From positions 26,767-90,766 of the forward strand of contig JAYWCB010000011.1 in the NCBI GenBank assembly GCA_043780835.1: a DNA stretch of 64,000 bases, given 5' to 3'. A program made the translations under genes and the position numbers. Numbering within the stretch: position 1 is the stretch's first letter; each line of letters opens with the position of its first letter. This document shows, piece after piece, positions 26,501-42,849 of this stretch. Origin of the DNA: Minisyncoccota bacterium. GTDB taxonomy: Bacteria; Patescibacteriota; Minisyncoccia; Phycocordibacterales; UBA2100. Under the pieces are notes generated by a model that saw nothing but the letters and a program-made list of their open reading frames with translations, did not search any database and was not told the DNA's origin.

Positions 26501-29212
26501 ACGACCATACAAAATCAAGGCCTCGGCCGTTACGCGTTTGCGATTTCCGGCGGCACCGTAAATGCGCAGTACTATCAAGTACGTAACACCGATCCGAGCG
26601 GTATTAATTTCACAGGATCACCGACGCTCACGTCGCTCGATGCGGGAGATCTCGAGCTCGGTGTTTCCGGCGGCGCTCTCATAACAGTCGCCGGCTCAGT
26701 GATCGATGCCAACGCGAGCAAAGTGATTACCAATGTACGCTTTGCGACGTCGACGGGCATACTTGCCGGAAACAACATCGTGCGAACCGGATCTCCGATC
26801 TCGGCGTGGACCTTTACGAGTCACTACGGAAACATTGCCGGCGAAGCCTACGACACTGACGGTGTTGACGCCTGCGGCGCATTACGATGGAGCGATTCCG
26901 TCTGTCTGTTTGTAAGTCAGGAACATTACCGATGGCGCAATGACGACGGCGGCGACGGTGCACCGAACACGGAATGGTACAGCCTCTCATGGGCAAAGCG
27001 CGAAAAAATCGCAATCTCGAATCCGAATGGTTCCGTACTCACCAGTCAGCCGGTTAAGATAATCATTCCGTACACGTCGTCGATGCAGAGTAACTTCAGT
27101 GATCTGCGTTTCACCGATTCATCCGGTACGACAACCATCCCGTATTGGATAGAAAAATACACCGCATCTGCCTCATCAACAGTGTGGGTAAAAGTACCGT
27201 CGCTGCCTGCATCGGGTTCGGCAAATGTGTATATGTATTATGGCAACAATGCCGTTACCGACGGATCAAGCGGCACGACGACGTTTAAGACCTTCGAAGA
27301 TTTTGAATCAAACAGCATCTCGGGATACTCAGGAAATACAACAATGTTCCAGACCGCGGTTACGTTCAATCACAACCACTCCTACGGGCTCGATGCCGGC
27401 TCAAGTGCTGCGCTGAAAACTACGACGGGACTCTATAAAACAGGTTCACTGATTGCGCAGGGCGACACCCTTCGCTTCTATCAGTATGTCGATTCCACAC
27501 AAACGGATGAACCGTGTACGCTCTTTGCGGTGGGAGGATCCGGATCGAACTACGCGGTGTGTCTCGATCAGTACCCGACAGCAAAAGTCGTAATCTCAAA
27601 GGATGTGACGGCCAACGATCAAAGTGGAACCGTACTCGCGTCTACCACCGTTACGTATACGACCGGGTGGTACGAGGTGGTCGTTGATTGGTTGGCGACA
27701 AATGTAATTAACGTAAACGTGTATACAGACACCGGCACACTCTTCGCCACGACAAGCGTTACCGATTCTTCCCATACTGCCGCGGGAGGCTACGGATTTT
27801 CATACTGGTTCATGCATGGCGGATGGGATTTCCTGAGCGTGCGTCCGTACATTGCGAGTCAGCCCACGTATGTGATCGGCACCGAGCAGGTGAGTGGCGG
27901 TGCTTCGTGGAAGGTTGCCGAAGACACACTCGTGCCGAATCTTTCTGCCGGGCAAAACGTGCGCTTACGTTTCTCGATTCAAGACTCGGGTGCATCGGTC
28001 TTTGGTCAACTGTACCGATTGCAGTACGCACCGAAGGGCGTCTCTTTGAATTGTGAATCAGTCGCGCACAGTAATTACAGCGACGTTCCCACAACCTCAG
28101 GCGCCGGTTGTGGTTCCGCTGCCGCGTGTATGACAACCACGGCCCAATACTCCGACGGTGCGAGCACCGCCGGATTGCTTTCGTATCCTGCGGCGATGAG
28201 TTTTATAAATGGTCACGTGGTATCAGATCCATCGCAACAAACGGCGAGCTCAACAATTGCCGCATCGGCAGCTAGCGAAGTCGAATATAATCTCCAGATA
28301 AAAGCGGCGGCAACGGCAAATGCGTACTGCTTCCGCGTTGCAAACGATGGTCCCAATAGCAATTCGAATTTCGATCTCGACAACTACGCGCACGTGGCCG
28401 AAGCAACGATGGCGTACGCGCCGACAATCTCAAATTTTAACTGGCCGCTCAGCTACATTCTCTCGGGCATCGCGCTCACCGAAGGCACGACGACCACTGT
28501 CTCTGCGACGGGTACCGTCACGGACTATAACGGCTACGCTGATATCGTGAGTGCGACATCATCTATCTATCGCTCGGGCGTCGGTTCGTCGTGCACATCG
28601 AATAGCAACAACTGCTATCCGATTCCTGCGTGCACGCTCTCGAATTGCGCGGGTACTTCGTGCACGATTACATGCTCGGCGAATGTACAGTATCTTGCGG
28701 ATCCGACGGACGTGGGCAGTGCAAATAGTGCAGAAAATTGGCTCGCATCGTTGCGCATCCAGGATTCAATCGGATTATCTGCCACAAGCAGTACCTCGGG
28801 TGCAGAAATAAATACACTCTTCGGACTCACCGTGAATACCGGCGCGATCGACTTCGGAGCGCTCTCCGTCGGTACCGATACCGGCACATTCAATGCAACG
28901 TCCACGGTCGTGAATACCGGCAATGCAATCATCGATATTCAACTTTCAGGCACCGATCTTGCGGGATCAAATGGTTCTCTTGCAGTCGGACAGCAGCGGT
29001 ATGCGACGAGCACATTTACCTATGGGTCGTGCTCCGTGTGTCAGTTCTTGACCGGTAGTTCGACTCCGGTCGATGTGAATATTCCCAAAGCAACCACAAC
29101 GGCTACGTCCACTCAAACCCAGACGAGCCTCTTCTGGGGCATCAACGTGCCCATTGGAACGACTGCTGAATTGCACCAGGGAACCAATACCTTCATCGCG
29201 GTACACAATTAA
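11588..29212 (+). CDS. Giant cell-surface protein (5,874 aa from ATG 11588): signal anchor, FN3-like and beta-helix-like repeats, 2.4-kb tandem repeats, C-terminal DUF2341/LamG-like region
   Basis: A single uninterrupted 17.6-kb ORF, trimmed to MFPSGILKKRRAQRVLAALLVLGILAYLAY (TM anchor), with a Pro/Thr-rich linker. Two FN3-like modules end in TYWWRVRAxDPTG. Dozens of roughly 100-aa Gly/Thr/Asn-rich modules (..NNGT..L.A.S.GKTI....S.FYNLT.NGSGG.W.F..) suggest a parallel beta-helix. The C-terminal HYRWRNDDGGDG...SDLRFTDSSGTTTIPYWIEKY...VWVKVPSLPASGSANVYMYYGN matches the DUF2341 pattern, followed by a concanavalin/LamG-like region. Confidence 0.85.
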   Translation: MFPSGILKKRRAQRVLAALLVLGILAYLAYSSSDLVGAFGGTREAHIFSTSVSAQGWDHSERAISQDLPANAPLESFNDTNSAVAVMVAVPNANSGGSGNDTGTTTPQEIHSDASSTPTIATSSPSETTAPQQSAPNPAQPAQIVAPATPPVVTPPTDTPAIHESIPSQTPPATDPGPTSLIRQFIHTTEEIVFAPFVPTVFATTSDASSSPDAPSLPQDSTSKDEYVASCFLQQTECHTLAFSGFGVTGDITKKHFKHALVNFSFADSAGRENGTLDDKLEVRYYHAGKWKQAGEMYLNKDLSNESNGGYFSAPLDDITDWQSLDDLKVVIEYVRADTGKSTRLYLDSLWINAQYTDTVLNILNGSADQATDSSDNVSLSLRGQDDAHRTLVLPDGNNISFNFTDDLDDGLPMRSDRKVYTSDASSSDGLFRSTVYVSVSNPGDSPDSFTWSGAFFEGKGSVTGISQFLRNVASSTEASVQNDVTYLCDSQWQSATTTGSYSCSATGEVHQCSWLNATKQNCLESDVTVATSSSVAYLNDWVPQDIEVVQSADDTKLPNGYKTKNRTRKSFDILPGQTLYFRVQLETTQPDPQKFYLYVNGGTKSGDLESARLKKESDLVAQKNRKGTVHKGVPHVKRAQLNDQLSEKTEFNADDRPSFEFKFKTQRGLFTRIKDRLLGTKVAFEIKDTKIEDANGDETRLPVDINYGSDETWNLTLGSPTREIKPGKYTIDMTIIEAGHTYTDTVDFFWGVLAENTDKATYEPGENAHFEMAALTDSGNTMCDASLVLSITAPSGEITDVPVQNGLGCGMNNVTDQPDYFADYTVDEIGTSTVTLSRLDQNGSVINSVTDVFYVEVAPALSVSRTGPTRIYPIATYPMSIEVTANEAFTGTVTESLPEGFTVPDAGGATLTRDKGVVYLTWNVSLAVGETADFSYVFDAPDASPYLYLLGPLKFTRSDGSGFEEGRTWKVASDAVPVATGVAWLTGTSTTNGNDLNNNTPFALQFDKSEDYDDAYYSHSTSTSPSRLTVNIAGDYLVAVNVPWERADTSRNPTTLEVDIRVNGAKQTVGVGRSYTLTRSGVGESSSHVYALVRNLSVGDYIEAYSHTITTVTAGDVMLVGTRASMYVEYIPSTETVYTATATTTVADTNLNTTGATKVVWYDGRKDTGYTHANATTSSPENVTIAATGDYMTFINIPLNGAVAGENVRARVVLNGVVVTGGNFKQGYISNSAGATQSSLQWSGVVHATSSNSVFTVDVQQEGAAGTMTVGSDVGSLFMQKLPSTDVYFGSGQTLSGGGTNFNITPAQSIRYATDTVADLNAYTHSTTTNSHQVTVKKAGDYLLAINDSLSGAVTRGNIIIQVQKNGVDVSGAATKNHYMSGVSTHSEYSGSLVFMLRDLAVNDVISVTTVLTGTAGTVTADEGASIMLWRKNPQSLYQQNTYRWYANVNGEPPTDPWPSGAVDVLQGDPITNGIPIKSSDVVRLRMNLLAVSTTTAFADSFKLQYAAGSTCSAALSWTDVGAIGSGAIWRGYDNAGVTNNTTLSSTTLTNSNVKESYVEQNPSTTTPNGVGTGQNAEYDWTLQDNGATVGGDYCFRMVDATTGQGLKSYLDYPALTTNSTPDIPVLAAPFDNEKSTSTTPWFDFAAAEINGENVHYEVQVSTDPNFGTTLLDRDSFTNYVEFQNTTSPANKSPFNQSDKIRFIPTTALSNGTTYWWRVRAKDPTGTNTYGSWSISRSVTVDTSVTVSTWHQTTQAQFLEDQLLSATTTIANDVQISGVLATSTVISPQINFSGMTYGNTWGSLTWNDAHVLGTIMYQVQYFTSTSSWALIPDTDLPGNSLGTSTQPISLANLDVTTYGALRVVANMTRTTGTPTLFDWTVNTALSVTKPVLSKPFDNEKTATTTPTFQFISTDPQSDRLRYQVEWSTDSAFGTGTFRISGTNAGFSNTASSTDTDPFTQNNTIQFQLQSADVLTNGTTYWWRVRAIDPTGGNAFSQWSAGNSFTVDTSLAVSTWFQTTQAQFAKDTFIRTIASTSNSVISSVDTGKIAIFRTATAGEALTTSVFTHGFDTTVRRDDVYALSGTTTVGLKKGHYAVLYSTRFDSTGGTNRTDAQTNLNIAGVNSPIGWSSSYLRRLNGAQEGFNAGGGIIYAPADSTQVLLQSFRTDANVAATETRVASTTLQFVKLDDAWDYVRLGKKVKQTGPTSASWLTISYDRQDELDTGSFDHTVGSGNITLKSVGHYLIFANTYGSLATGSTIPSQVKQKIILNGADVEGSFTTVYMNGNANGNAVYQGAAAIGMIIESTTTNTVLNVQLARSIGTSAWSIDADNTGAYVDRTGVTIVKIPDGSFVRLQNSSAININTATTSAYVWDTENEKDASFTHSNSTNNSRITATVAGDYLLFGNLFAQGANLTDGEPGFSWAKNAALIPYGVSGTYSANITTSDAGNWSGMIMPSVVNGDFFEFMSEAYGLAGSMPGDRKALEGMRIASLTEADTNPVTVESQSINFSDGTGPKWATFSWSATQPASTSLKMQLEYLNASGTYALVPDNAGFIAGYLNSVGTTSTSTINISGLSRITYATIRGLATFTCGNNNCPTLDDWTASWAQGIQISGTAKKFDETTNVTSGTVAVAVNGVLQAGKTGTISAGVWTIANVTAFTGDVITVYISGAADPNEAVAVSKYLTTGDVTGMELYEDHLSLGSNDNPTLTNADIDLYDNSTSGNEDIFDNVTAGPDLLVCAITGCSGNKLYIRVGTTFEPNVSLSRSVTTKDISIKGILIADGNSINVSGSWADSGQFAKGNSTVNFTATSTTESVDFTGATSTSFNNATFGSSGTATWNLLSALDVTGTLTINNGTLSQNGNHLITLSGDLTIGSSGAFTKGTASTTFNGTTSKIWTDSSASKQDLGDVFIDGAAKTVTLGSSVKATNITIGADDTFNLGGANTVTVNGNWTNNNAFVPQTGTVLFAAMTTGNTITPGTSGFYNLTFNGSGGNWAFSGATASITNDFTVTNGTITLPTGTTTIAGNFSNSATFQHNNGTVLLTAASAKTITTGASTFYDLTFNGSGSWSFTAANATSSRNVTITTGTVTMPSGTFAIGGFFAKNGGSFTHNSGTLKFTATTAQTLKLGGSDANNLTFSGVGGSWSFADTNATSTGTFRIENGTTTLPSGLFTVAGSWTIAGGAFVHNSGTVKFNAGSSGQTIQPNGSNFFNIDFNGASGGWTIAQSATSTNNFTLTNAATFTLGSGFSLGVGGTFTNAVAPATTTWSGSTLTLYSGGTYSINTKSNAGDTYATLVISSTTKISMWNSSASTSTVSSGSYLYSQNNAAVSGDLYIAGVYTRSSGTEYWSYATDFDGTALGGSSRRVNVRVATSSTLTFSGGTLQILGSASASTTIDNQGSGAYAFAVSGGTLNAQYYQVRNTDLNGLNISGATSISSLSDGDFQLGVNGGTMIKVASTVIDANVAFQILRNRFATSSGVSVGSNVTETGVPGSYWWFRSHYGNYAGESFDNDPKVSDGGNPGYIRWDDSNLSINISGRVYSDHGSTVIGNPPCDGVTPVVKLVVNSGTSYTAACNAGTGLYTISGVTVVGDVVLTAFLDTNGGTRAVTISRTPSADIANFDLYQDVVIVRHEDVTPITIAQLAFYDSTKDTDIPFTASTSTPPSTLAVKPGTELYVWAGKTFTPGGNVTLQSGGNGNIRDGRLMLATSSAYLATGSETHAIGGGLSLASGDTFGTASSTFTFTATTTNKSFNSSIALSFYNLVFNGTGGGWSLDSAATTSVTNSFAMTAGTLSGTGDMNITSGSATGGGTIAMTGGTLQLTGSGSIGSASSWTFNNLILGSGAVDSTSKTGVGTTTVSGMLRITSGQTLNASSTNWVFTGGGSPFVVNGTFNVQSAPFFFTSNASTTIADVTYAMLTLAPASAGTPVYTLKGGALSASVLTLGGVNPVLVDADFNDPSIGITGTVTIGAGSTFKASNTGAFDVGGSWQNNGSFLHQNGSLNFNSSATGNTVNPGSSSFYDLSFNNVAGGWTIAQNATTSRHFTLTRATNFTLASGKSLSVGGTFTNGVGGAATTWATTTLSLTSGTAYAMNTKSVSGDVYGTLSVSSNTNVNMWNSSAATTTVASGSSLYSQNNASVSGDLYIWGDYSRSSGTEYWDYATDFDGTSLATSTPRAVTVRIATSSTLTFTGGTLEILGTTTATTSIAVQGSGRYAFSVSGGTLNAQYYKIRDTDINGLNITGTTVVTSLSDGDFLLASNGGTTMTVAASVIDANPLKIIMRNNFATTSVITGGSNVKESGAPASSWKFNLHYGNFAGEAYDNDPAGDPGYLRWDDSSSQITISGKVYSDEGTTTSAVCNGVTQVVRLKIQGAGILTSSCSGTGLYSIPGVAYNPGDVITVYLDTNGGVRAATVSLDPISSIANFDLYENRVIVRHEDVNPITIAKLATYDSDNDTDIPYNATVGAPNTLVLLPNTKLIVWDGKIFTPGGNVTLQSGGSGSAWDGTLELRTNATWIGANNQSHSIGGSLSVDNGALLTSASSTFTFTATTSGKTIALQNSSLFTAVFNGGGGNWSFPSGSAIVQNDFSIATGTVTFGVGTTTIGGSLFNSGGIFQHNNGTIVLNASSTGKSIKANGNSFYNLTLNGSGGAWTFSDTNATSSNNFIVTNGSTTLPVGIFAVGAVFDNSGTFTAGVGTVKLIATASGKNLKAGGSSFYNLTLDGIGGVWSFLDANATTTRDFTITNGSTTLPSSTFNVGGSFVNAGAFSAGTGLVTLSATTTGKLITASSSTFYDLTLNSAAGGWTITGNATSSNNFSLTNAASFTLTSGKTLAVGGAFTNGVGGAPTTWATTTLSLYSGTGYSMNTKTTGGDTYGTLLVASSTNIRLWNSSAATTTVLGSGSVYSQNNANVPGDLYIWGTYAHSSGTEYWDYATDFDGTALGGSSRAVNVRIATSSSLSFSGGTLEVLGTASATTTIQNQGLGRYAFAISGGTVNAQYYQVRNTDPSGINFTGSPTLTSLDAGDLELGVSGGALITVAGSVIDANASKVITNVRFATSTGILAGNNIVRTGSPISAWTFTSHYGNIAGEAYDTDGVDACGALRWSDSVCLFVSQEHYRWRNDDGGDGAPNTEWYSLSWAKREKIAISNPNGSVLTSQPVKIIIPYTSSMQSNFSDLRFTDSSGTTTIPYWIEKYTASASSTVWVKVPSLPASGSANVYMYYGNNAVTDGSSGTTTFKTFEDFESNSISGYSGNTTMFQTAVTFNHNHSYGLDAGSSAALKTTTGLYKTGSLIAQGDTLRFYQYVDSTQTDEPCTLFAVGGSGSNYAVCLDQYPTAKVVISKDVTANDQSGTVLASTTVTYTTGWYEVVVDWLATNVINVNVYTDTGTLFATTSVTDSSHTAAGGYGFSYWFMHGGWDFLSVRPYIASQPTYVIGTEQVSGGASWKVAEDTLVPNLSAGQNVRLRFSIQDSGASVFGQLYRLQYAPKGVSLNCESVAHSNYSDVPTTSGAGCGSAAACMTTTAQYSDGASTAGLLSYPAAMSFINGHVVSDPSQQTASSTIAASAASEVEYNLQIKAAATANAYCFRVANDGPNSNSNFDLDNYAHVAEATMAYAPTISNFNWPLSYILSGIALTEGTTTTVSATGTVTDYNGYADIVSATSSIYRSGVGSSCTSNSNNCYPIPACTLSNCAGTSCTITCSANVQYLADPTDVGSANSAENWLASLRIQDSIGLSATSSTSGAEINTLFGLTVNTGAIDFGALSVGTDTGTFNATSTVVNTGNAIIDIQLSGTDLAGSNGSLAVGQQRYATSTFTYGSCSVCQFLTGSSTPVDVNIPKATTTATSTQTQTSLFWGINVPIGTTAELHQGTNTFIAVHN
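21160..26900 (+). repeat. Intragenic tandem repeat of about 2.3-2.4 kb, ~2.4 copies, inside the giant gene
   Basis: Three collinear blocks begin near 21160, 23580 and 25890. Each encodes ...WTIAQ/TGNAT.S..F.LT.A..FTL.SG..L.VGG.FTNGVGGA.TTW...TL.L.SG..Y.MNTK...GD.YGTL.V.S.T......WNSSA.T.TV... ...YWDYATDFDGT.L...........GGTLE.LG.......GSG.YAF..SGGT.NAQYY..R.TD..G.N..G. The third copy is truncated where the DUF2341 region begins. Confidence 0.7.
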
Positions 29213-29215
29213 TAT

Positions 29216-29908
29216 ATGCACAAGGCTCCAACTCATTCGATAGGCAGACGGCGGCGAGTGACTGCGCTTGTCATCATTATTCTTTTGGTGGTTATTGCGT
29301 TTGCGCTCACCGTATATATCACCGGACATCGATTAAAATCAGAGTACGATACATTCATCGCAGCGGAAGCAGATTTTGAGACTGCCGCAAACAAACCGGC
29401 TTCCGGATCGAATCCGGTCCGCCAACAAGTCGGATACCTGCTTTCGCAAGTGGTGCAAGTAACCATGTCACCTGAAGAGCGACTCAAACTGTCTCGCGAA
29501 GGCATTGCTCATTTAAACGATCTTGAGGGACAGATTGATGCAATTCAAACAGCGGGTGAGCGGGTTTCTCCGCTGTTGGATACGTTGGCAAAAACCGCAT
29601 CATCACCCGTTCATATCCAAAAACGCGCAGGTTTGAATGAGATTATTGCGCTCAGTCGTAAAAACGCACTCATCATTGCCGATATTCGTGGCTTGTCGTA
29701 TCGCGCCGATTACTACACCGACGAAGTATTTGAGCGCATTATTGATGATCAGGGGAACATGACTGACGAGCACAAGACCCACCTCAACGACCTCATCCCG
29801 GATCTCGAAACGCAATTTAATCGCCGGACCAATCTCTATACCGACCTCAAGAAAAACAGTGATCGAATACATGCGATTGCAAAAGATCTCGGCTATGCAG
29901 TTCAGTAA
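29216..29908 (+). CDS. Hypothetical membrane-anchored helical protein
   Basis: The start is 4 nt after the giant gene stop, suggesting co-transcription. N-terminal TM (VTALVIIILLVVIAFALTVYI) followed by a roughly 190-aa alpha-helical domain. No recognisable family. Confidence 0.5.
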   Translation: MHKAPTHSIGRRRRVTALVIIILLVVIAFALTVYITGHRLKSEYDTFIAAEADFETAANKPASGSNPVRQQVGYLLSQVVQVTMSPEERLKLSREGIAHLNDLEGQIDAIQTAGERVSPLLDTLAKTASSPVHIQKRAGLNEIIALSRKNALIIADIRGLSYRADYYTDEVFERIIDDQGNMTDEHKTHLNDLIPDLETQFNRRTNLYTDLKKNSDRIHAIAKDLGYAVQ

Positions 29909-29944
29909 TACGTGGGGATGGCAGGAGCGCGGGCATAGAGTACA

Positions 29945-30289
29945 ATGGTTTCGACTATGGAGGATACATATATAGAACATTCACACGAGAATTCGCGACG
30001 TCGTTCGGGAGCCGTGATGAGAAGCATCGAGTCGTTGTTTGAATTTGTAACAAGCAGTCTCAGGATCATTGCGCACGAAAAAGCATTGTTTATGGGTGTT
30101 GCACTCACTCTGGTAGGACTCTTAAGCTTTGAAAGCGGAAAGTTCTGCGACGGAAATACCGCTGATTATCTTTCGTGCACACGACCGTCAACGTATTACT
30201 TTTTTAGCCCGCTCGAGATTACGATTATCGTCATCGGGGTATTTTTCATTTTGATCTGGTTGCTCGGACGACCAAAGCATCGTTCCTGA
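29945..30289 (+). CDS. Hypothetical small membrane protein (2 TM)
   Basis: A 114-aa ORF with two hydrophobic segments (LFMGVALTLVGLLSF and ITIIVIGVFFILIWLL). Weak call. Confidence 0.3.
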   Translation: MVSTMEDTYIEHSHENSRRRSGAVMRSIESLFEFVTSSLRIIAHEKALFMGVALTLVGLLSFESGKFCDGNTADYLSCTRPSTYYFFSPLEITIIVIGVFFILIWLLGRPKHRS

Positions 30290-30292
30290 TTT

Positions 30293-30336
30293 TTTTCCAC
30301 GCGATAAAAATAGTGTGCGTACTCGGGTGATACAAT
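30293..30336 (+). promoter_or_regulatory. Candidate promoter for the FN3-repeat gene: DnaA-box-like TTTTCCACG plus extended -10 TGaTACAAT
   Basis: TTTTCCACG (30293..30301) lies 29 nt upstream of TACAAT (30331..30336), which is preceded by TG. The ATG at 30367 follows. Confidence 0.3.
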
Positions 30337-30366
30337 TTAACGGTGCGGAGTGCACTGTTTTTCGAT

Positions 30367-31806
30367 ATGCAATTCATTTTTCAATCTCGCGCACGTATTG
30401 GTATCGGCGGAATCGCCCTTATTGTGCTGCTTATCGCGCTCCACGCGTATGCGGCGGAAATTTCGAGTGTCAAAATTAGCGACGTAAAGCCCGACGCTGC
30501 GACCGTTTCCTGGACGACAGATAAAAACACCGATGCAACGATTAATTTCGGTTTGGACGAACGGTTCGGCACCGTTCGTGACAGCGCATTCGATAAAAAA
30601 GACCATACCCTCACCATTGATAGTCTCGAGCCGGCAACGACGTATCACTTCCGTGTGGTTTCCACAGATGCTGATGGCAACAAAAGTACCACCGCAGGCT
30701 TCGTGTTCACTACTAAAGATGATCAGAAGAAAATCAAGGAGCGGATCATCAAAGACATCAAAAAGATTACCGATCCGAAGGCTATTATTGAGATCAATGA
30801 TCAGGTCAAAGAGACAGCGGGTGATATTTTGAAACCACCGACGATTCTGGGACTGCCCCGTGTAAACGTAGACCAAACGAAGGCGGAAATTATCTGGACC
30901 ACCGATCGCGATTCGAGCTCGATGGTGTATCTGTCACCCGATAAAGACTACAACGGGGGATCGAGCGATTACACGATTGCGCAGGGCGATCCGAACGATG
31001 CTGTGTCCAAACACACGGTAGAGGTTATCGGACTCGATCCGTCAACCACGTACCACTTCAAAGTGGTCTCGAACGATTCAACGGGACTGACCGGAGAGTC
31101 TGGCGATGACACCTTTAAGACCAAATCCATCCTTCCTTCTGTACGAAATGTAAAAGTGTCTCGTATTCAGCAAACCACGGCCGTGATTTCTTGGGATACA
31201 AGTGGGGTACTCGCACGTGGCATCGTTGAATACACGAATACCCGCACCAAAGTTACGAAAGTTGCGGGAAGCTCTGTGTTTGCGGCACAGCAAAACGTGC
31301 AACTTGCAGATTTGGAGTTTGGCACGCGCTACAGTGCCCTTGTGCGCACGACCAACCAGGATGGCGACAACGCAGAGAGTACGCCGTTCCAGTTCATTAC
31401 GATACGCGACGTGATTGCTCCTGCGATCACCAAGGTGAAGAATGAATCGACACTCTTTCCGGGCGAAGACGTGAAGATCCAAACCATCATTGCGTGGGAG
31501 ACCGATGAGCCTGCCACGTGCCAGGTGTTCTACTCGCAAGGTCTTTCAACAGGCGGTTCCAATGCAGGTGCTGAGTCCACGCCGAAAGAGACAAATCCGC
31601 TCACATCGCACACGCAGGTGATCGTCGGGTTTACCCCGGCAACGGTGTATCAGTTTTGGGTCGTGTGCAACGACGAAGCGCTGAATGAGTCGCGCTCAGA
31701 AGATTTCGTATTAATCACACCGATCAAAGAGAAGAGTATTATCGACATCATTCTTCAAAACTTCCAAGGCACATTCGGGTGGGTCAACAACATCGGCAAG
31801 AAGTAG
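30367..31806 (+). CDS. Secreted protein with four fibronectin type III-like repeats
   Basis: Signal peptide MQFIFQSRARIGIGGIALIVLLIALHAYAA. Repeats match V.WTTD...s.v.yg.....Y......t.Y.fkVvs.D..GN: VSWTTDKNTDATINFG...TTYHFRVVSTDADGN, IIWTTDRDSSSMVYLSP...TTYHFKVVSNDSTG, VISWDTSG...TRYSALVRTTNQDGD, and IIAWETDEPATCQVFYS...VYQFWVVCNDEALN. Confidence 0.75.
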   Translation: MQFIFQSRARIGIGGIALIVLLIALHAYAAEISSVKISDVKPDAATVSWTTDKNTDATINFGLDERFGTVRDSAFDKKDHTLTIDSLEPATTYHFRVVSTDADGNKSTTAGFVFTTKDDQKKIKERIIKDIKKITDPKAIIEINDQVKETAGDILKPPTILGLPRVNVDQTKAEIIWTTDRDSSSMVYLSPDKDYNGGSSDYTIAQGDPNDAVSKHTVEVIGLDPSTTYHFKVVSNDSTGLTGESGDDTFKTKSILPSVRNVKVSRIQQTTAVISWDTSGVLARGIVEYTNTRTKVTKVAGSSVFAAQQNVQLADLEFGTRYSALVRTTNQDGDNAESTPFQFITIRDVIAPAITKVKNESTLFPGEDVKIQTIIAWETDEPATCQVFYSQGLSTGGSNAGAESTPKETNPLTSHTQVIVGFTPATVYQFWVVCNDEALNESRSEDFVLITPIKEKSIIDIILQNFQGTFGWVNNIGKK

Positions 31807-31810
31807 CGAT

Positions 31811-33157
31811 ATGGCAAAAACATCTATACGCACGGAAGGCATGCATATTACCTACAACAAAGGCCAGGTGAATGAATTCAAAGCGCTACAAGACGTCAAT
31901 ATAGAGATCTATCCGCGCGAATACATCATTCTCTTCGGTCCGTCCGGCTGCGGGAAGTCAACACTGTTGTACACAATGCTCGGCGGCGTACCTCCATCGG
32001 ATGGGAAAATGCTTGTGCAGAACGAAGACATTTATGCGTACACTCCGGCGGAGCTCAATCGCTATCAACAAACCACCATCGGCATCGTGTACCAGCAATT
32101 CAATCTTATTGCTTCGTTGAATGTGCTCGATAATGTGGCGCTTCCCATGCTCTTTCTGGGAATCGAGCAGAAAGAACGATGGGCGCGGGCCGCGACACTC
32201 CTGCGCCGCTTTGGCGTGCCTGAGCGTGTGGAAAATAAGTTGCCCGCCCTCATGTCCGGCGGACAGCAGCAACGCGTGGCCGTTGCGCGTGCACTCATCA
32301 ACGACCCGGAAATTCTGCTCGCAGACGAGCCAGTGGGCAACCTCGACTCTATTTCTGCAGAACACGTGATGGACTCCTTTAAGGAAATTAATGAGAAAGA
32401 CCGTAAAACAGTGATACTCGTTACGCACGACGCGAAATATCTTCCGTATGCGCATCGTGTGTTCTATATGCGCGACGGACGATTGCGTCGAATCGTCGCG
32501 AATCCGGGAAAGCAGCAGATTATGCATGTGAAGCCGGGCGAAAACATCGTGACCGAAATCGAACAGCTCGCACGCATGTATCCGTATGCGGAGCCGGTGG
32601 AGCTCAAAGTGAAGAGCGTGGTGAACTTTGTGACGCAATCCATCGGCTTCTCACAGCTTGAGCGTCTTGAGCAAGGAATTCTGTATGTATTGAAGGGAAC
32701 CATGAACGAGCAGATGTTTTCCGAGTTTCTCACGAAGCCGTTCCATCTGGGCGGGGTTGGCATTCACCCCGAAGAAGTTCCTGAAATGTCGCGGCGAGTA
32801 TTTAGTTTGATTCGATACTCAATTGATGTGCAGCGATTCCGACAAGAGGTAAAAAGCGATAACGCGTTTATGCACCAACAGAAATTTGTGGAACGGCTGC
32901 TCACATACTTGAACGAAGAAGTCGGATTTCACATCTCACAAGCCGAATTTCAAATTCTGCGCGAAGCGGTGGCGGATCGCGTGGGGGGAATTACAGATGC
33001 GGATCAGTTTGCGGAGCGATTGATTCTCGCCAAAAATCTTAACGGTGCAGAACTTGAAGAGCGGATCGCGTATCTCATTAGCGTGCATATGGAAAAGCTG
33101 ATTGCGCAGGGCGGCTACATTATTCTTCCAAACGAACTCGAAGGAGGTCACACGTGA
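31811..33157 (+). CDS. ABC transporter ATP-binding protein (MacB/LolD-like) with ~220-aa C-terminal extension of unknown function
   Basis: Walker A GPSGCGKST, Q-loop, ABC signature LSGGQQQRVAVARAL, Walker B ILLADEPVGNLD and H-loop VTHD occupy the first ~225 aa. Residues ~230-448 form a helical extension not typical of MacB/FtsE ATPases. Confidence 0.85.
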   Translation: MAKTSIRTEGMHITYNKGQVNEFKALQDVNIEIYPREYIILFGPSGCGKSTLLYTMLGGVPPSDGKMLVQNEDIYAYTPAELNRYQQTTIGIVYQQFNLIASLNVLDNVALPMLFLGIEQKERWARAATLLRRFGVPERVENKLPALMSGGQQQRVAVARALINDPEILLADEPVGNLDSISAEHVMDSFKEINEKDRKTVILVTHDAKYLPYAHRVFYMRDGRLRRIVANPGKQQIMHVKPGENIVTEIEQLARMYPYAEPVELKVKSVVNFVTQSIGFSQLERLEQGILYVLKGTMNEQMFSEFLTKPFHLGGVGIHPEEVPEMSRRVFSLIRYSIDVQRFRQEVKSDNAFMHQQKFVERLLTYLNEEVGFHISQAEFQILREAVADRVGGITDADQFAERLILAKNLNGAELEERIAYLISVHMEKLIAQGGYIILPNELEGGHT

Positions 33158-33290
33158 TATGCCTGTCACACGAAACGGCATGAATATCAGAGATATTGCC
33201 CTGTATACTTTCCTTATCTCGTATGAATTTAGACTCGATAACTACTTCGAAACGCGCTTCATAGCGCAATGTCGTTTCGTGTGAACAGGT

Positions 33291-34499
33291 ATGCAGATAC
33301 GCGACGTTGCAATGCTTTCCACTCGTATGTTCAAGACGAACCCGTCGCGTACGTGGCTCACAATTTTGGGCATGGGCGTGGGTACCGGCGCCGTGGTTGC
33401 GCTTGTCGGCCTCGGGTTCGGATTACAAAGCATTATTCTCGACAAAATCGTGCTCGGTGATTCACTTCTCTCACTCAACGTGACAAATCCCGCATCGAAA
33501 ATCGTGGTGCTTGATCCGGCAACCATAGAATTATTTTCGGCGATGGACGCGGTGAAAGACGTGTCAGGCGTTGTCACGTTTCCAACACTTGTCACCTATG
33601 AGGGTCTTACCGGCAACGCCAACATCCAAGGCCTTGCACCGTCGTACCTCCTCTACACCGGTGCACAAGCAGTCGCCGGTGATTTGTTTACCAATGACAG
33701 TGCCGTCGAAGATCGCAATGCCGTCGTTATCTCGAGCGCGATGCTCAAGCTCTTCGGTGTCGAAAAGCCGGAGGATGTCATTGGCAAGACGATCACGTTC
33801 CGGGTGTTCGTGCCCAATGAAGGGAGCGATCAATCAACTGAAGTCCAGCTCTCAAAGCAATACAAGATCAAAGGTGTCACGAGTGATTCGGGGAATCTTT
33901 CGGCAGCGATCACACTCGAGGAATTTCAGTCGAACTTCAAAATCCCGTATTTCGATCGGGTGCAGGTGCGCGTGATCGATAGTAAATCCTTGACGGAGGT
34001 GCAGGACGCGATCATTGCGAAAGGATTTACGGTGACTGCGCTCTCAAAAACCGTCGCCCAGGCTAACAAGATTTTCCAAGGCATTCAGGCGGTACTGGCT
34101 ATATTCGGCGGTATCGCGCTCACGGTCTCTGCAATCGGCATGTTCAATACCATGACGGTTACGCTGCTGGAGCGTACGGCCGAAATCGGAGTTATGCGTA
34201 CGATCGGTGCGTCATCTGCGGATATCGTCATCCTTTTCGTTGCGGAAGCGATCATCGTGGGGCTGCTCGGTGGGGTGGTGGGGATTCTCATTGGAGGCGG
34301 CATCGGTGTGTTTTTCAATGGGCTGCTCTCGGTTGCGGCGAGTAAATTTGGCGGAGAATCGGTGAGTCTTTTTAAATATCCGATTTGGTTCTTAATATTC
34401 ATTTGTTCGTTCTCTGGCGGCGTCGGCTTTTTAACGGGACTCTTTCCGGCGCGACGCGCAGCAAAGATTAACCCTCTCGACGCGATTCGCTATAAATAG
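33291..34499 (+). CDS. ABC transporter permease, FtsX/MacB family (N-terminal TM, large extracytoplasmic domain, C-terminal FtsX 3-TM bundle)
   Basis: The topology TM1 (WLTILGMGVGTGAVVALVGLGFGL), then a roughly 230-aa periplasmic-type domain, then three C-terminal TM helices is characteristic of MacB-type permeases. It sits directly after the ATPase. Confidence 0.8.
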   Translation: MQIRDVAMLSTRMFKTNPSRTWLTILGMGVGTGAVVALVGLGFGLQSIILDKIVLGDSLLSLNVTNPASKIVVLDPATIELFSAMDAVKDVSGVVTFPTLVTYEGLTGNANIQGLAPSYLLYTGAQAVAGDLFTNDSAVEDRNAVVISSAMLKLFGVEKPEDVIGKTITFRVFVPNEGSDQSTEVQLSKQYKIKGVTSDSGNLSAAITLEEFQSNFKIPYFDRVQVRVIDSKSLTEVQDAIIAKGFTVTALSKTVAQANKIFQGIQAVLAIFGGIALTVSAIGMFNTMTVTLLERTAEIGVMRTIGASSADIVILFVAEAIIVGLLGGVVGILIGGGIGVFFNGLLSVAASKFGGESVSLFKYPIWFLIFICSFSGGVGFLTGLFPARRAAKINPLDAIRYK

Positions 34500-34541
34500 C
34501 GGTGCTTCATAAACGCCTCATTCAAGCCACAAAAACACCAG

Positions 34542-34586
34542 TTATCCACACGGGGCTAACGTATTGAAAGGCGACAGTGGTACGAT
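34542..34586 (+). promoter_or_regulatory. Candidate promoter: perfect DnaA-box 9-mer TTATCCACA plus extended -10 TGgTACGAT
   Basis: TTATCCACA (34542..34550) is followed 30 nt later by TACGAT (34581..34586), which is preceded by TG. The ATG at 34599 has an AAGG SD. Confidence 0.3.
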
Positions 34587-34598
34587 TTCTTCTAAGGT

Positions 34599-36506
34599 AT
34601 GTCCGAGCAATTTCACCGGAAACTCAGCATGTTCTTGAAAGGGGCGCGAAGCATGGAAGGTAAAATCACGATTTTCACATCGGTGATCGGCTGTTTGGTG
34701 CTTGTGGGCTTCGTTACCATCTTTAATGTGAACGTGCCGCTCGCGACCGCGAGCAACGTTGTGACGTCTGTCACTGTTTTGAACACACCGCCTACATGGA
34801 CGGTCGACGCTCAAGAATCTGCGCAATCGTCAACCTCTACACCGACAAATGCGGGACAGAGTATTACGTTTGTCGCCACCGGCACTGACTCAAGTAACGA
34901 CAACTACTATCTATTGATTTGCAAGAACAGCACCTCACCGACAGCGAATAACGGTACCGCTCCATCGTGCAACGGTGGTGTGACCAACCAGTGGGCGGTC
35001 TCAACTTCTACTACAAGCGGTCTGCAGGCGAGTGCTGCGACGACCACAACGGAGCTTTTTGCAGAGAAAAACGACTGGTGGGCCTGGATTTGCGATAACA
35101 ACGCAACGCTTTCGCGCTGCAATCTTGTTTCAAAAACAGGAAGCGGTTTGACGGCGTCTCCATTCGTAGTCAACCATCCGCCGGTTTTTATATCGGTCGC
35201 CAATAACAGTCCGCAAAATCCCGGCAGCAACGTTACCTGGACGACGGTCGCGTCTGACAGTGACACCATACGAGGCAGTGACACAGTGATTGTTGTTTTA
35301 TGTAAAACGTCGGGATCATTTAATGGTACTACGTGTACCACAGGAGGCGAATATGCTACGTCCACTTTTGCAGCATCCAACCCCTCAACATCTTCTCCAA
35401 TTGTCATACCGACGCAGGATCGTCTCTATAACGCGTTCGCGTACGTAGCGGATAACCTCGGACTCGCTGCCACCTCTACTGCGCAGGGAACGAATTCGTT
35501 CTATCAAGTATCAAATGTAGCCCCGACGATCGTAGCGTCGTCGATCGCTTTTATAGATTACAACGCAACGACGAGCACCGGTAGCCTGACGCTCACGGTA
35601 GCTTCTGCGACGTCGGGTCCGTTTAAGGTTGTATTCACTGCTGTGGATAACAATGGCTGTCAGAATGCATCGTCCACAAATGAAATTGTTTCGAATATAA
35701 TCAATGTCTATCGCTCTGGCATTTCGTCCACCTCGTGCCAGACTTCGGGTCAATATAATTCCAATAATTGCTATTCCGCGGCATCGGGTAATTTCTCGCC
35801 ATTTTTCAATTGTACGCAAGATGGCGGGAGTTGTAGCGGAGCAACAGACTCGGATGCAACGTTTACCTGCACATTCTCCCTGTGGTTTAACGCCGATCCG
35901 ACAGACGCGGCGACACAATTCACTGCCGAATCATGGCTTGCAACGGTCCGAGCGACTGACGACAACGCGACTACGAGTGCACTCACTGAAAAGACGGTCG
36001 GCACCACAGATGTCATCAGTTTCCTTGCGTTTAATGTTTCTACTTCCACGGTCGCGTATGGAGCATTGCAGCCTGGTGATACAACTACGCCACTCGTTGC
36101 AAATACAGACATGCAGGCTATTGGTAACATCGGACTTGATGAAGATCTTTATGGATCGACGATGTGCACAACATGGGTAGCAGGTGGTGGTGGTACTGCA
36201 CCGGACAACTGCGACATAGGAGGCGCGAACGCTGCTACGAAGATTCCAGTGACGCAACAGGTGGTTGCTACGGGTACCATCACCTACACGTTGGCATCAG
36301 CATCAACCACGCTTACGGGAGCACTGCCTGCATCTACGTCACCACGAGCCATACTCCTCAACGTGCCTAAGACTACATCAACGAGTACCATCCAAACTCG
36401 AAATACGTTCTGGGGTATTGCTATTCCGTCCACGATCACGCAATCAGGCAGCTATCAGGGACAAAACACCATTACCGCAAAAAAGAGTTCTTCTGCAAAC
36501 TGGTAA
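34599..36506 (+). CDS. Secreted Thr/Ser-rich surface protein sharing a C-terminal domain with the giant protein
   Basis: Signal anchor (ITIFTSVIGCLVLVGFVTIF). The C-terminal ~200 aa (ESWLATVRATDDN...FLAFNVSTSTVAYGALQPGDTT...TFWGIAIPSTITQSGSYQGQNTITA) is collinear with the giant protein C-terminus (ENWLASLRIQDS...FGLTVNTGAIDFGALSVGTDTG...LFWGINVPIGTTAELHQGTNTFIAV). Confidence 0.6.
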   Translation: MSEQFHRKLSMFLKGARSMEGKITIFTSVIGCLVLVGFVTIFNVNVPLATASNVVTSVTVLNTPPTWTVDAQESAQSSTSTPTNAGQSITFVATGTDSSNDNYYLLICKNSTSPTANNGTAPSCNGGVTNQWAVSTSTTSGLQASAATTTTELFAEKNDWWAWICDNNATLSRCNLVSKTGSGLTASPFVVNHPPVFISVANNSPQNPGSNVTWTTVASDSDTIRGSDTVIVVLCKTSGSFNGTTCTTGGEYATSTFAASNPSTSSPIVIPTQDRLYNAFAYVADNLGLAATSTAQGTNSFYQVSNVAPTIVASSIAFIDYNATTSTGSLTLTVASATSGPFKVVFTAVDNNGCQNASSTNEIVSNIINVYRSGISSTSCQTSGQYNSNNCYSAASGNFSPFFNCTQDGGSCSGATDSDATFTCTFSLWFNADPTDAATQFTAESWLATVRATDDNATTSALTEKTVGTTDVISFLAFNVSTSTVAYGALQPGDTTTPLVANTDMQAIGNIGLDEDLYGSTMCTTWVAGGGGTAPDNCDIGGANAATKIPVTQQVVATGTITYTLASASTTLTGALPASTSPRAILLNVPKTTSTSTIQTRNTFWGIAIPSTITQSGSYQGQNTITAKKSSSANW

Positions 36507-36583
36507 TTTGTCCTCTCGTATAGCCACATAATAACCACTCTCCGCTGGACATTCGAGGAGGGGACCGTGATACTATTGAGACC

Positions 36584-37579
36584 ATGATGTCACTGCCGTG
36601 GCGGCTCTTAGGAATGCGCACATTTGCAGTGCTCCTCCTTGTTCTGGTGTTTTTCGGCGGATTCCGGTTTGCCTCTGCCGGTTTTGGAATCACGCCTCCA
36701 TACGTGCGAAACGAACGTCTCACTCGCGGAACCGTATATGAGCAGCGCATCACACTTGTTCGTTCCGATCCGATTGACGATCAAAAGGCGGAAATTAGCA
36801 TGAATATACCGGGAGTAGAATCCTGGTTTAGTGTCGACAAAGGTACGTCATTTATCCTACCCGCGGGACAAACGCAGGTATCGATAGTGATATCTGTGCA
36901 TGTGCCGGCGGATGCAGAGTACACGCGCCACCAAGGTACTATTCGCATTCGAACATCGTCTGCCACAAATCAACCGGAAGGAGGGGGCGTATCTATCGCA
37001 CTCGGAGCGCAGATCGATGTGGATGTACTTGTCGTCGACAAAATTTATGACTTCGAGGTGCGTCGCATTCGTACATCGGATCTGGAAGAACCGCGTCATA
37101 AGTGGGGATTGTTGTTTCCTGCAAAAATTCGATTCTTTATGACGATCTCAAATACAGGGAACGCGGTCTATGGCCCGACCAAGGTAAAGCTCGATATTTA
37201 CGACAGTGAAGTTGAACGGTTGCAAGAGACGACGTATAACACAAACAAGATTGAACAAATTGCGCCGTTCGCGACCAAAGAGATTCTCGCGGAACTACCA
37301 ACGAGGCTTTCCGCGGGGCGCTATACGGCGAAATACACTATTTATAAAGGCGAGGACATCGCGCAGCAGGAGCAAATCAATCTCAGTGTGGCGGCAATTG
37401 GTGCAGTGCAAGGCTACAGCGGATACGGATTCGAGGGGCTTTCAACACCGGATAAATTAAAGGTGGCAGGGGTGCTCGCCATACCCGTCGTGGTTCTGCT
37501 CACACTGTTTACAATATTTGGCGTTCGTCGTCGTCGGAATCGGGCACGCAGATCTCAAGTGCCGCCGCGCATGCGGTAA
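36584..37579 (+). CDS. Secreted protein with C-terminal TM anchor and Arg-rich tail (paralog of 50859/52211/55094 family; DUF916-like architecture)
   Basis: Signal peptide, a beta-rich roughly 270-aa domain (GITPPYVRNERLTRGTVYEQRITL...SWFSV...ILPAGQTQVSIVISVHVPADA..HQGTIRI), then TM (VLAIPVVVLLTLFTIF) and a GVRRRRNRARRS tail. Confidence 0.55.
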   Translation: MMSLPWRLLGMRTFAVLLLVLVFFGGFRFASAGFGITPPYVRNERLTRGTVYEQRITLVRSDPIDDQKAEISMNIPGVESWFSVDKGTSFILPAGQTQVSIVISVHVPADAEYTRHQGTIRIRTSSATNQPEGGGVSIALGAQIDVDVLVVDKIYDFEVRRIRTSDLEEPRHKWGLLFPAKIRFFMTISNTGNAVYGPTKVKLDIYDSEVERLQETTYNTNKIEQIAPFATKEILAELPTRLSAGRYTAKYTIYKGEDIAQQEQINLSVAAIGAVQGYSGYGFEGLSTPDKLKVAGVLAIPVVVLLTLFTIFGVRRRRNRARRSQVPPRMR

Positions 37580-37587: not shown

Positions 37588-38727
37588 ATGCGTATGGCAC
37601 GTAAACCGCTCGTTGTTTCGGGAATTATTGTTGCATCGGCAATACTGTTCGGAGGCATGATACACATTGTTACTGCAGCGGATGTCCGCACATCGGTGAC
37701 CATGATTGTGTGTGGTGATGCGGTCGTGAGCCCATCCGGCGAGGCCTGTGACGACGGGACCAATCTGGGTGGATACGGTTCGACGACCGCGCAGCGTCGG
37801 TGCAATCCCGGGTGCCAATCTTTTGCGGAATACTGCGGCGACGGTGTGTTACAGGTGCGATTCAGTGAGCAATGCGACGACGGCAACACGATTGCAACTG
37901 ACCTCTGTTCGCTCACCTGTCGCACGCTTGCTCCTGCGGGTTCGACGCAGGTTTCCGGGTCGCCGACCGTCGGTTCGACGCCGTTTATTCCCGGAGCTTC
38001 TCCGGGCAACATTTCGTCTGAAACTAAAACGCGTGTGGTTTTGCGCGGAAAAGCATACCCCAATAGCACGGTGAGTATTTTGCTCGATGGCAAAGTAAAG
38101 GGTACAACCCTGGCCGATTCAAACGCTGATTTTCAATTCTCTTCGACCGATATTACCCCGGGTACCGCAACGTTCGGCTTTTCAGCCAAGGACGCAAAAG
38201 GTGTTGAATCGATCACGACGTCCGTGGTGTTTGATGTGGCTCAGAGCGCGGTATCGACGGTGGCAAACGTGTTCTTCCCGCCCACGATCTCAGTGAGTGA
38301 GCGACAAGTACCAAAAGGTGACCCATTGACCGTTTCAGGATATTCCGTGCCCAAAGCGTCGGTTTCAACCGAAATCGGGGGAGGTACGAAATCGGTACTG
38401 AGCGCGAATGCCGATGCGACGGGTGCGTGGGCGCTGCAAGTTGATACGAAGTCTCTCACTGACGGAATGCATACGGTGAAAGCGTTTTTCAAGCAGGATG
38501 GCGGCATACAGTCAGGGTTCGGTAAATCAATATCGTTTAGCGTCGGAGCCGGTGCGTTTGCTGATACGGGTTCGGCCGATCTCAACGGCGACCACAAAGT
38601 GAATCTGGTAGACTTTTCAATCTTCTTGCTCAAGTGGAACACGGATGATATTCAGGCCGATTTTAATGGCGACGGAACGGTAAACTTGGGAGACTTCTCA
38701 ATTATGTTGTTCAATTGGACCGGCTAG
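37588..38727 (+). CDS. Secreted protein: myxo-type Cys-rich repeats, Ig-like (Big) domains, C-terminal dockerin
   Basis: The signal anchor is followed by Cys-rich repeats (CGDAVVSPSGEACDDGTN...CNPGCQSFAEYCGDGVLQVRFSEQCDDGNTIATDLC), the pattern of Myxococcales-type disulfide repeats. Two Ig-like beta domains follow. The C-terminus ADLNGDHKVNLVDFSIFLLKWN...DFNGDGTVNLGDFSIMLFNW is a duplicated Ca-binding dockerin repeat. Confidence 0.65.
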   Translation: MRMARKPLVVSGIIVASAILFGGMIHIVTAADVRTSVTMIVCGDAVVSPSGEACDDGTNLGGYGSTTAQRRCNPGCQSFAEYCGDGVLQVRFSEQCDDGNTIATDLCSLTCRTLAPAGSTQVSGSPTVGSTPFIPGASPGNISSETKTRVVLRGKAYPNSTVSILLDGKVKGTTLADSNADFQFSSTDITPGTATFGFSAKDAKGVESITTSVVFDVAQSAVSTVANVFFPPTISVSERQVPKGDPLTVSGYSVPKASVSTEIGGGTKSVLSANADATGAWALQVDTKSLTDGMHTVKAFFKQDGGIQSGFGKSISFSVGAGAFADTGSADLNGDHKVNLVDFSIFLLKWNTDDIQADFNGDGTVNLGDFSIMLFNWTG

Positions 38728-38765
38728 ATCGATATATGCATACAAAAAACCGCTATACTACTCTT

Positions 38766-42458: not shown

Positions 42459-42845
42459 ATGATGAACAAAAAAGACGAATACATATCTCTTCGCGAAGCG
42501 GCAGCGATTGCTGGGTATACACCGGACTATGTCGGGCAACTCATTCGCAGCGGCAAAATTCCAGGAAAGCAGGTGTTTGCGAACGTTGCATGGATGACTA
42601 CCGAGGAAGCCGTGCGGAGCTACGCGGGGCAAAAGAAAGGAAAAAACTCCGGAAAAGATGTGATTGCCCCCACAATATTCGAAACCCTCCAGCGTGAGAT
42701 CGACTCGCCTCGAATCGTAAAGCGTCTTTCGATTGCGCTCATCGTGATGAGTGTCGCATTTATGCTCTTGCTCTTCTATATCTTTTCAACGTCGCTCGAC
42801 CAGCGACTCAATCAGCGCGCGATACAGCGGCTCGAGCAAACATAA
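42459..42845 (+). CDS. HTH_17 (excisionase/MerR-like) DNA-binding domain protein with C-terminal TM helix
   Basis: The N-terminal ISLREAAAIAGYTPDYVGQLIRSGKIPGKQV matches the HTH_17/excisionase-type helix-turn-helix. C-terminal TM IALIVMSVAFMLLLFYIF. The ORF track begins at TTG 42453; ATG 42459 was chosen. The stop lies 4 nt before the next giant gene. Confidence 0.6.
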   Translation: MMNKKDEYISLREAAAIAGYTPDYVGQLIRSGKIPGKQVFANVAWMTTEEAVRSYAGQKKGKNSGKDVIAPTIFETLQREIDSPRIVKRLSIALIVMSVAFMLLLFYIFSTSLDQRLNQRAIQRLEQT

Positions 42846-42849
42846 AATC

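Follow-up and report, generated by a model that had tools for sequence, protein, structure and literature searches.

The window analysed here, a stretch of 64,000 nucleotides from a Minisyncoccota bacterium (contig JAYWCB010000011.1 of assembly GCA_043780835.1, positions 26,767–90,766 of the forward strand), contains open reading frames (ORFs) for an ATP-binding cassette (ABC) ATPase of 448 residues (31811..33157, plus strand) and a permease of 402 residues (33291..34499, plus strand), which together are a type VII, or MacB/FtsEX-class, ABC pair. Every hallmark of this class that was tested is present, namely the motifs of the nucleotide-binding domain (NBD), a permease with four transmembrane (TM) segments and an FtsX bundle, and an outside domain between TM1 and TM2. 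The pair usually lies beside a Sec-exported protein with fibronectin type III (FN3) repeats, whose stop codon in the window is separated from the ATPase start by 4 nucleotides, and the triad of ATPase, permease and FN3 protein may well be a three-part type VII ABC system with the FN3 protein as its putative outside partner. The features of the locus are as follows, with the evidence that defines them in brackets.

30343..31806, plus strand: FN3-repeat partner protein, 487 residues (Pfam, hydropathy, colinearity with the giant proteins of relatives)
31717..31803, plus strand: tail at the extreme C-terminus of the FN3 protein, TPIKEKSIIDIILQNFQGTFGWVNNIGKK (consensus of 40 tails)
31811..32494, plus strand: NBD of the ATPase, residues 1–228 (Pfam, NCBIfam, PDB sequences, motifs, Foldseek)
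32498..32557, plus strand: linker from the NBD to the extension, residues 230–249 (low model confidence, well-kept sequence)
32558..33154, plus strand: all-helical cytoplasmic C-terminal domain of the ATPase, residues 250–448 (AlphaFold2 model, no family match)
32633..32827, plus strand: extension repeat 1, residues 275–339 (hhalign)
32924..33118, plus strand: extension repeat 2, residues 372–436 (hhalign)
33291..34499, plus strand: MacB-type permease, 402 residues, with TM1, an extracytoplasmic MacB_PCD of ~220 residues and a three-helix FtsX bundle (Pfam, hydropathy)
29216..29908 and 29945..30289, plus strand: two small membrane proteins of 230 and 114 residues (tblastn synteny, hydropathy)

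The ATPase, its helical extension and the permease

The ATPase begins with a complete cassette, which the initial annotation had placed in about the first 225 residues and which occupies residues 1–228 with every catalytic motif intact. The Pfam family ABC_tran matches residues 26–175 (E = 5.6e-30), and the Walker A (GPSGCGKS, residue 43), Q-loop, signature (MSGGQ, 148), Walker B (ILLADEP, 168), D-loop (NLD, 177) and H-loop (VTH, 204) motifs are all present; the enzyme looks active. Neither NCBIfam models nor solved ABC ATPases match beyond about residues 225–248, and when the full-length AlphaFold model (mean predicted local distance difference test score, pLDDT, of 88.2) is compared with known folds in Foldseek, about 228 columns align to the NBDs of MJ0796, MacB, LolD, YbbA, HrtA and FtsE, with template modelling scores of 0.91–0.94 relative to the target. 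An exact look-up of this ATPase in public assemblies returned nothing on record.

The remainder of the chain, residues ~229–448, is the helical extension of roughly 220 residues that had earlier been described as fitting no family, and our searches agree: no Pfam family matches it even at E ≤ 10, and neither do NCBIfam models, PDB sequences or, in Foldseek, the folds of the PDB and BFVD. TAFH, CodY, SHOCT and ARGLU were considered as relatives and rejected, their profile matches being weak and not significant, and the lack of any Pfam match at E ≤ 10 or fold match together with the all-helical model also sets the extension apart from the TOBE, NIL/ACT and CBS regulatory domains. Modelled alone, it is all-helical with a pLDDT of 82.9, which becomes ~90 inside the full-length model, where the 20-residue linker (residues 230–249) has values of 56–73. 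The extension is acidic (isoelectric point, pI, of 5.4 for residues 229–448, with a family median of 6.2), has no TM segment by hydropathy and is encoded in one ORF with the NBD at all loci examined. Mean pairwise identity in the narrow clade of relatives is 80% for the NBD, 78% for the linker, 57% for the extension and 74% for the permease, and the family alignment has invariant Glu and Gly positions in the extension; these positions and the identities of the extension and its linker suggest that the extension is under selection.

Alignment of 37 family members reveals within the extension a two-fold internal repeat of a three-helix unit of ~65 residues, and the column blocks of the two repeats in the A2 alignment match each other in hhalign with a probability of 99.4% (E = 1.4e-21, 65 columns). 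Each unit consists of a helix, a short helix, a Gly-rich loop (GGVG in repeat 1) and a long helix, with the consensus Q..RLE..i..rL.G.I....F...Ld.P...GGvGL....A..ia..lE.l, and after repeat 2 comes a terminal motif specific to the clade, EKLIAQGGY.I..NEL.G.H[ST]. As a whole, the extension is a folded and conserved cytoplasmic domain of a novel kind, built from two such units. A search with the extension profile among 1.84 billion cluster representatives retrieved 133 clusters (50% identity) at E ≤ 1e-3, many of which are ATPases of 415–450 residues that match at the C-terminus, and a few are longer. Four such relatives (P0092, P0099, P0102 and P0136) run 100–350 residues past the extension in sequence that by eye is rich in Pro, Lys, Glu and Ser; the terminus of P0102 gives a sub-threshold YqeY-like match, and the extra sequence of the other longer relatives has no Pfam match and appears by eye to be of low complexity.

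The permease has the MacB layout that had been assigned to it, with matches to MacB_PCD (PF12704) at residues 21–242 (profile positions 1–205 of 207, E = 3.2e-20) and to FtsX (PF02687) at 271–395 (E = 1.7e-15), and with one N-terminal and three C-terminal TM segments by hydropathy (~21–51, 261–293, 304–351 and 363–387). The PF12704 match predicts a porter-containing extracytoplasmic domain between TM1 and TM2, and all NCBIfam matches of the protein are far below the equivalog cut-offs. A separate, genuine FtsEX pair, from which the pair described here is distinct, was correctly recognised in the window by the initial annotation and lies at 62109..63970. Its FtsE (62109..62867) exceeds the equivalog cut-off of TIGR02673 (268.5 against 264.85 bits) in a match that begins at residue 26, which agrees with the start at 62184 given previously, and its FtsX (63041..63970) is matched end to end by the FtsX models at 192–198 bits against cut-offs of 225–255. 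The stop codon of the ATPase is separated from the permease start by a non-coding spacer of 133 nucleotides (33158..33290), which is ~140 nucleotides in L001 and L002 and just 4–8 nucleotides in L003–L005 and most other relatives. A single weak terminator-like hairpin lies within this spacer at 33254..33267, and scans for promoters and terminators over 29000..37000 gave results at chance level.

The FN3-repeat protein and the gene neighbourhood

The FN3 protein of the window consists of a signal peptide or anchor (TM at ~15–45, with AYA/AE), FN3-1, a helical linker of ~45 residues, FN3-2 to FN3-4 and the tail, and Pfam recognises in it four stretches of Pur_ac_phosph_N and three of fn3. In the narrow clade the FN3 proteins begin with Sec-type signal peptides (AYA/AE), whereas the giants begin with single TM anchors, and the FN3 module with its tail is for this reason expected outside the cell. 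The protein has 487 residues here, and in the wide family the complete ones have ~2200–2270 and incomplete ones up to 2387 residues, with many Pur_ac_phosph_N/fn3 repeats and in L038 additionally FG-GAP repeats. The 487-residue protein is colinear with the last ~480 residues of giants of ~2200–2400 residues that adjoin homologous ATPases, as in L067 (residues 1903–2386, E = 1e-64), and the ~45-residue helical insert between FN3-1 and FN3-2 falls within the colinear stretch. The last ~450 residues, with four FN3 domains, and the amphipathic tail are kept in the FN3 proteins wherever these were met. The 5884-residue protein encoded upstream was also considered as a detached N-terminal part of the FN3 giants, which could not be established, the similar patches being merely 68–97 residues long (E ~1e-14).

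The consensus of the 40 distinct tails is S.DF.L.TP.KEKSIID.I..NFE.TFGW with 4–8 residues after it, and in this sequence the Pro, the last Phe and the upstream Ser are present in 40/40 and the Asn in 39/40. Among 972 ORFs at 114 loci the motif is restricted to FN3 proteins that adjoin the ATPase, and it occurs once in the window. Its helical hydrophobic moment is 0.39–0.55 compared with a 95th percentile of 0.39 for shuffled sequences, and the tail is a candidate docking or recognition element for the permease. Word-indexed protein searches with the extension and with the FN3 C-terminus returned only close fragments on short contigs.

In the narrow clade, a GTDB search with one genome per species gave 27 loci (L001–L027) and one spurious match; the 27 are all labelled as Patescibacteria (Paceibacteria, Adlerbacteria, Kaiserbacteria, Parcubacteria, Minisyncoccia or generic 'Saccharibacteria'), with ATPase identity down to ~59%. 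The initial annotation had proposed that orthologous loci be compared for an ABC pair beside giant genes, and when the window proteins are mapped by tblastn the order is indeed largely kept in L001–L027 wherever the contig reaches. It runs from the giant gene (11558..29212) through the genes for the 230-residue, 114-residue and FN3 proteins, the ATPase and the permease to those for a 635-residue protein, a 331-residue protein, a dockerin protein and two cohesin-like proteins, two minus-strand genes and the gene for a 1647-residue protein. The large neighbours are borne out as proteins of 5884 (11558..29212), 635 (34599..36506) and 1647 residues (42751..47694). The GC content of the window is uniform (0.49–0.54) and its ends carry LigA, a GatA-like amidase, signal peptidase I, Hsp20 and FtsEX; given the flat composition, the housekeeping flanks and the synteny in 27 species-level genomes, the region is a conserved chromosomal block, and the earlier notion of an accessory island has to be abandoned. 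The proposed tie of the pair to giant surface genes holds in part, as linkage to large surface-protein genes recurs in relatives, but the specific kept partner is the upstream FN3 protein and not the 5884-residue gene product.

For the wide family, metagenomes were scanned with a looser subfamily profile, A4 (a subset of A3), which added 80 loci; the counts that follow refer to L029–L114 and are based on ORFs that we called ourselves and labelled by phmmer. At 59 of 60 evaluable loci the extension-bearing ATPase is followed by a permease of the MacB type with ~400 residues. An FN3-repeat protein is encoded no more than two genes upstream of the ATPase at 28 of 46 loci, in eleven of which the gap between them is −44 to +14 nucleotides, and with improved FN3 queries it is found no more than four genes away at 36 of the 42 decidable distinct loci, mostly at position −1 and sometimes at +2 or +4. 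The other neighbours vary and are housekeeping genes unrelated to the triad, among them those for FtsZ, pyruvate kinase, a MurA-like enzyme, MreB, an aminoacyl-tRNA synthetase, SecY, HrcA/GrpE and EF-P. A gene for a CheY-like stand-alone receiver (~121–135 residues) lies directly upstream of the ATPase at a minimum of 7 of 77 loci, that is, at least in L061, L062, L073 (6361–6756), L074, L075 (4430–4834), L083 and L090, and overlaps it by 7 nucleotides in L073 and L075. Among all loci of this analysis, the triad was found only in Patescibacteria genomes and unclassified metagenome contigs.

Several further observations concern individual loci and neighbours. L062 has, farther upstream, a second receiver gene and an ORF whose C-terminus by eye resembles a histidine kinase, without confirmation by domain search. 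The permease of L031 (11387–13315, GCA_016188605.1), a locus without an FN3 gene, has 642 residues, with ~260 extra N-terminal residues before MacB_PCD that have no Pfam match and might replace a separate partner. The two small membrane proteins between the giant and FN3 genes, of which the 230-residue one has one TM segment and the 114-residue one two hydrophobic segments, have no Pfam match; they accompany the module only in the narrow clade and in L029, a more distant locus where the first of them is on the opposite strand. The 5884-residue ORF contains large internal repeats, with residues ~2990–3830 and ~4000–4350 aligning with later parts in relatives, and over its last ~220 residues it is similar to the C-terminal part of the 635-residue protein (about 28–32% identity, tblastn against relatives), the two proteins sharing an end domain. 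Pfam Cohesin is found in a 497-residue protein (9950..11443), which the N-termini of two ~326-residue proteins (starting at 38715 and 39692, within 38715..40678) resemble, and Dockerin_1 lies at the C-termini of the proteins at 37588..38727, 40659..41441 (minus strand) and 57551..59266; this set, which is kept in the block with the ABC module in L001–L027, suggests that a Patescibacteria genome encodes a surface assembly resembling a cellulosome. Finally, a 373-residue protein (55037..56158) carries the peptidoglycan-binding domain of WxL-interacting proteins (PF06030, E = 8e-9) and is situated amid a run of ~440-residue ORFs (49489..54955) without a family match.

Proposed mechanism and alternative explanations

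Type VII ABC proteins have no transmembrane channel and act on the outer face of the membrane (PMC5985334). Four systems of this type have been characterised in E. coli, FtsEX-EnvC, LolCDE-LolA, MacAB-TolC and YbbAP-TesA (PMC5985334, PMC11466899, PMC12646458, PMC8333309), each of which has a dedicated extracytoplasmic partner and does its work outside the membrane (PMC12646458, PMC5985334, PMC11466899), with the closure of the NBDs being passed to the outside domain, which then acts on the partner or on outer-leaflet material (PMC5985334, PMC11466899, PMC12646458, PMC8333309). By analogy with these four, the transporter described here would move no cargo across the membrane. ATP binding and hydrolysis by the NBD dimer would instead be relayed by the stalk helices to the outside domain, which would grip and release, or extract, the membrane-hugging FN3 tail at the membrane surface and thereby anchor, position or free one end of a surface fibre that is short in the narrow clade and has ~2200 residues with FG-GAP repeats in relatives. 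The FN3 C-terminal module is the most likely partner because the triad is conserved, its genes are tightly coupled and the amphipathic tail does not vary, and grip-and-release or tail extraction is favoured since the permease has a full MacB_PCD, like MacB, and not an FtsX-type domain. The extension, which on the cytoplasmic side is the one feature that distinguishes these ATPases, would be positioned below the NBDs on its conserved 20-residue linker, where it could dimerise the ATPase subunits and/or take a cytoplasmic signal that gates the ATPase cycle; by analogy it is most likely a control or dimerisation module, and the occasional adjacent CheY-like gene is compatible with, without proving, the docking of a cytoplasmic regulator on it.

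On balance we lean towards this interpretation, a type VII mechanotransducer with the FN3-tail protein as its outside partner, in a physical interaction that we infer, and with the extension as control module. Several points weigh against it. The regular expression for the tail motif was defined from the same data in which its restriction was then scored, and the loci were gathered through the ATPase, so the association is counted in the direction from ATPase to FN3. Six fully evaluable loci of the wide family have no FN3 gene nearby, hence FN3 adjacency is strong and not obligatory. The role of the extension is argued from its position and by analogy, and the regulatory domains of MalK, MetN and ProV fold differently. 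The export of proteins, which had been suggested as the role of the pump, is unlikely in the literal sense since a Sec-type signal peptide of its own is present on the FN3 protein and type VII systems act outside (PMC5985334).

A generic efflux or peptide-resistance pump of the MacB, YknYZ or Bce kind, with the FN3 neighbour incidental and the extension a lineage-specific decoration of no specific role, appears unlikely. The best NCBIfam matches of the NBD do include DarD, LolD, a bacteriocin exporter and MacB, and the kinase-like ORF of L062 (not confirmed by domain search), together with the two receiver genes ahead of the pair, recalls Bce-type modules; however, these NBD matches all fall well short of the equivalog cut-offs, the search of the conserved neighbours detected neither a membrane-fusion nor an adaptor protein, and the FN3 linkage holds while every other neighbour changes, the FN3 tail being invariant and the extension kept across the 133 clusters. 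The changing neighbours also bear on a quite improbable alternative, in which the pair is a second FtsEX-like wall or division regulator that controls a hydrolase or the divisome, with the extension contacting the cytoskeleton and the FN3 protein as adaptor. FtsEX-type systems do act via outside adaptors (PMC11627006), and FtsZ, MreB or a MurA-like enzyme is encoded next to the pair in some wide-family loci, but such housekeeping neighbours differ between loci, the FN3 proteins have no detected hydrolase domain, the permease carries a full MacB_PCD in place of an FtsX-type domain, and the window already has an FtsEX pair, with FtsE over its equivalog cut-off and FtsX matched along its whole length.

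It is very unlikely that the pair is a Sec-independent exporter that translocates the giant or FN3 proteins, the extension reading a signal on them in the manner of type I secretion NBDs or the C-terminal domain of Wzt. The conserved FN3 tail is positioned like a C-terminal secretion signal and the extension is an additional cytoplasmic domain on the NBD, yet the two would sit on opposite sides of the membrane, the FN3 proteins have N-terminal signal peptides or TM anchors, and type VII permeases lack a transmembrane channel (PMC5985334). A nucleic-acid-binding role of the extension, prompted by the helix, G-h-G loop and helix of its repeat, which recall the helix-hairpin-helix (HhH) motif, has very little probability. 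The consensus Ld.P...GGvGL....A..i loosely resembles the HhH pattern, hPGhG...A..h, but none of 22 members is matched by a Pfam HhH family even at E ≤ 10, HhH motifs have a shorter loop, no fold match to HhH proteins was found, and the domain is acidic with no sign of a basic surface.

The mechanotransducer interpretation can be extended to a powered surface-fibre machine, perhaps widespread in Patescibacteria, in which the motor clamps, tensions or releases the C-terminal end of giant FN3/FG-GAP adhesins under cytoplasmic control via the extension and, in some lineages, a CheY-like protein; as a whole this is a speculative and rather unlikely proposal. The genomes of Patescibacteria are small and their cells are presumed to live attached to hosts, and we know of no account of what mounts or controls their giant surface proteins. 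If true, the proposal would describe a powered device with which these ultra-small bacteria attach and detach in their episymbiotic lifestyle.

Comparison with known ABC systems

In the literature on MacB and mechanotransmission in the candidate phyla radiation/Patescibacteria, and on giant genes with ABC transporters, we found no description of the ATPase domain, the FN3 tail or the triad, and public annotations call these proteins 'hypothetical' or a generic ABC ATPase. What is understood of type VII systems comes mainly from the four in E. coli, and it is the outside partner that defines each of them. The triad would bring a fifth class of partner, a surface fibre of FN3 repeats that is recognised via a conserved C-terminal tail, and the extension would, to our knowledge, be the first large extra cytoplasmic domain on a type VII NBD. 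A conserved, compact module of ~1340 residues, a sharply defined tail motif and a foldable new domain are also starting points for experiments and for the annotation of thousands of 'hypothetical' genes.

The pair belongs neither to MacB proper nor to FtsEX, LolCDE or BceAB. For MacAB-TolC, no adaptor domain was found in the conserved neighbours, and NF007826 gives 168.5 and 81.6 bits against a cut-off of 966; for FtsEX, TIGR02673 gives 172.9 bits against 264.85 and the FtsX models 25–44 bits against 225–255; and for LolCDE, TIGR02211 gives 176 bits against 307.75 and TIGR02212 67 bits against 362, LolA and LolB not having been searched for. BceAB-type systems combine a single 10-TM permease, which has one outside domain, with the two-component system BceRS, whereas the permease here has 4 TM segments in 402 residues, no kinase or regulator was found in the window cluster, and a receiver gene is present just in a minority of the distant loci. 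There is a close likeness to MacB of E. coli and A. actinomycetemcomitans, to which the NBD aligns with a template modelling score of 0.93 and 35% identity, the permease covering 205 of the 207 MacB_PCD positions; in contrast to MacB, the NBD is separate from the permease, and both a MacA-like adaptor and TolC are absent. As one of the Patescibacteria, the organism is presumably monoderm.

An extra domain that follows the NBD on a linker is likewise found in MalK (TOBE-like), MetN (NIL/ACT), ProV/OpuA (CBS), Wzt (carbohydrate-binding) and TagH. Those C-terminal domains dimerise below the NBDs and gate the ATPase, or select cargo, and a similar function is proposed by analogy for the extension, which has no sequence or fold match to any of them. 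They are beta-rich or CBS folds on importers and type V exporters, whereas the extension, carried by an NBD of type VII, is a tandem repeat composed of helices only. The tail of the FN3 protein resembles C-terminal amphipathic anchors in its terminal amphipathic helix and conserved aromatic residues, and its binding to membrane or permease is putative; we take the tail of PBP5-type DD-carboxypeptidases to be a comparable amphipathic anchor of an exported protein. Type VII permeases extract membrane-embedded groups, in LolCDE and YbbAP from the outer leaflet (PMC8333309, PMC12646458).

Overall, the module resembles FtsEX-EnvC/PcsB, LolCDE-LolA, MacAB-TolC and YbbAP-TesA in its separate NBD, its 4-TM permease of the FtsX fold with an outside domain between TM1 and TM2, and its tightly linked partner gene, and mechanotransmission with work outside the membrane is expected here as well (PMC5985334, PMC12646458). 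It differs from them in its partner, which here is an FN3-repeat fibre with an amphipathic tail and there a coiled-coil hydrolase activator, a chaperone, an adaptor or a lipase, and in the helical domain of 200 residues on its NBD, which has no counterpart in the solved type VII members.

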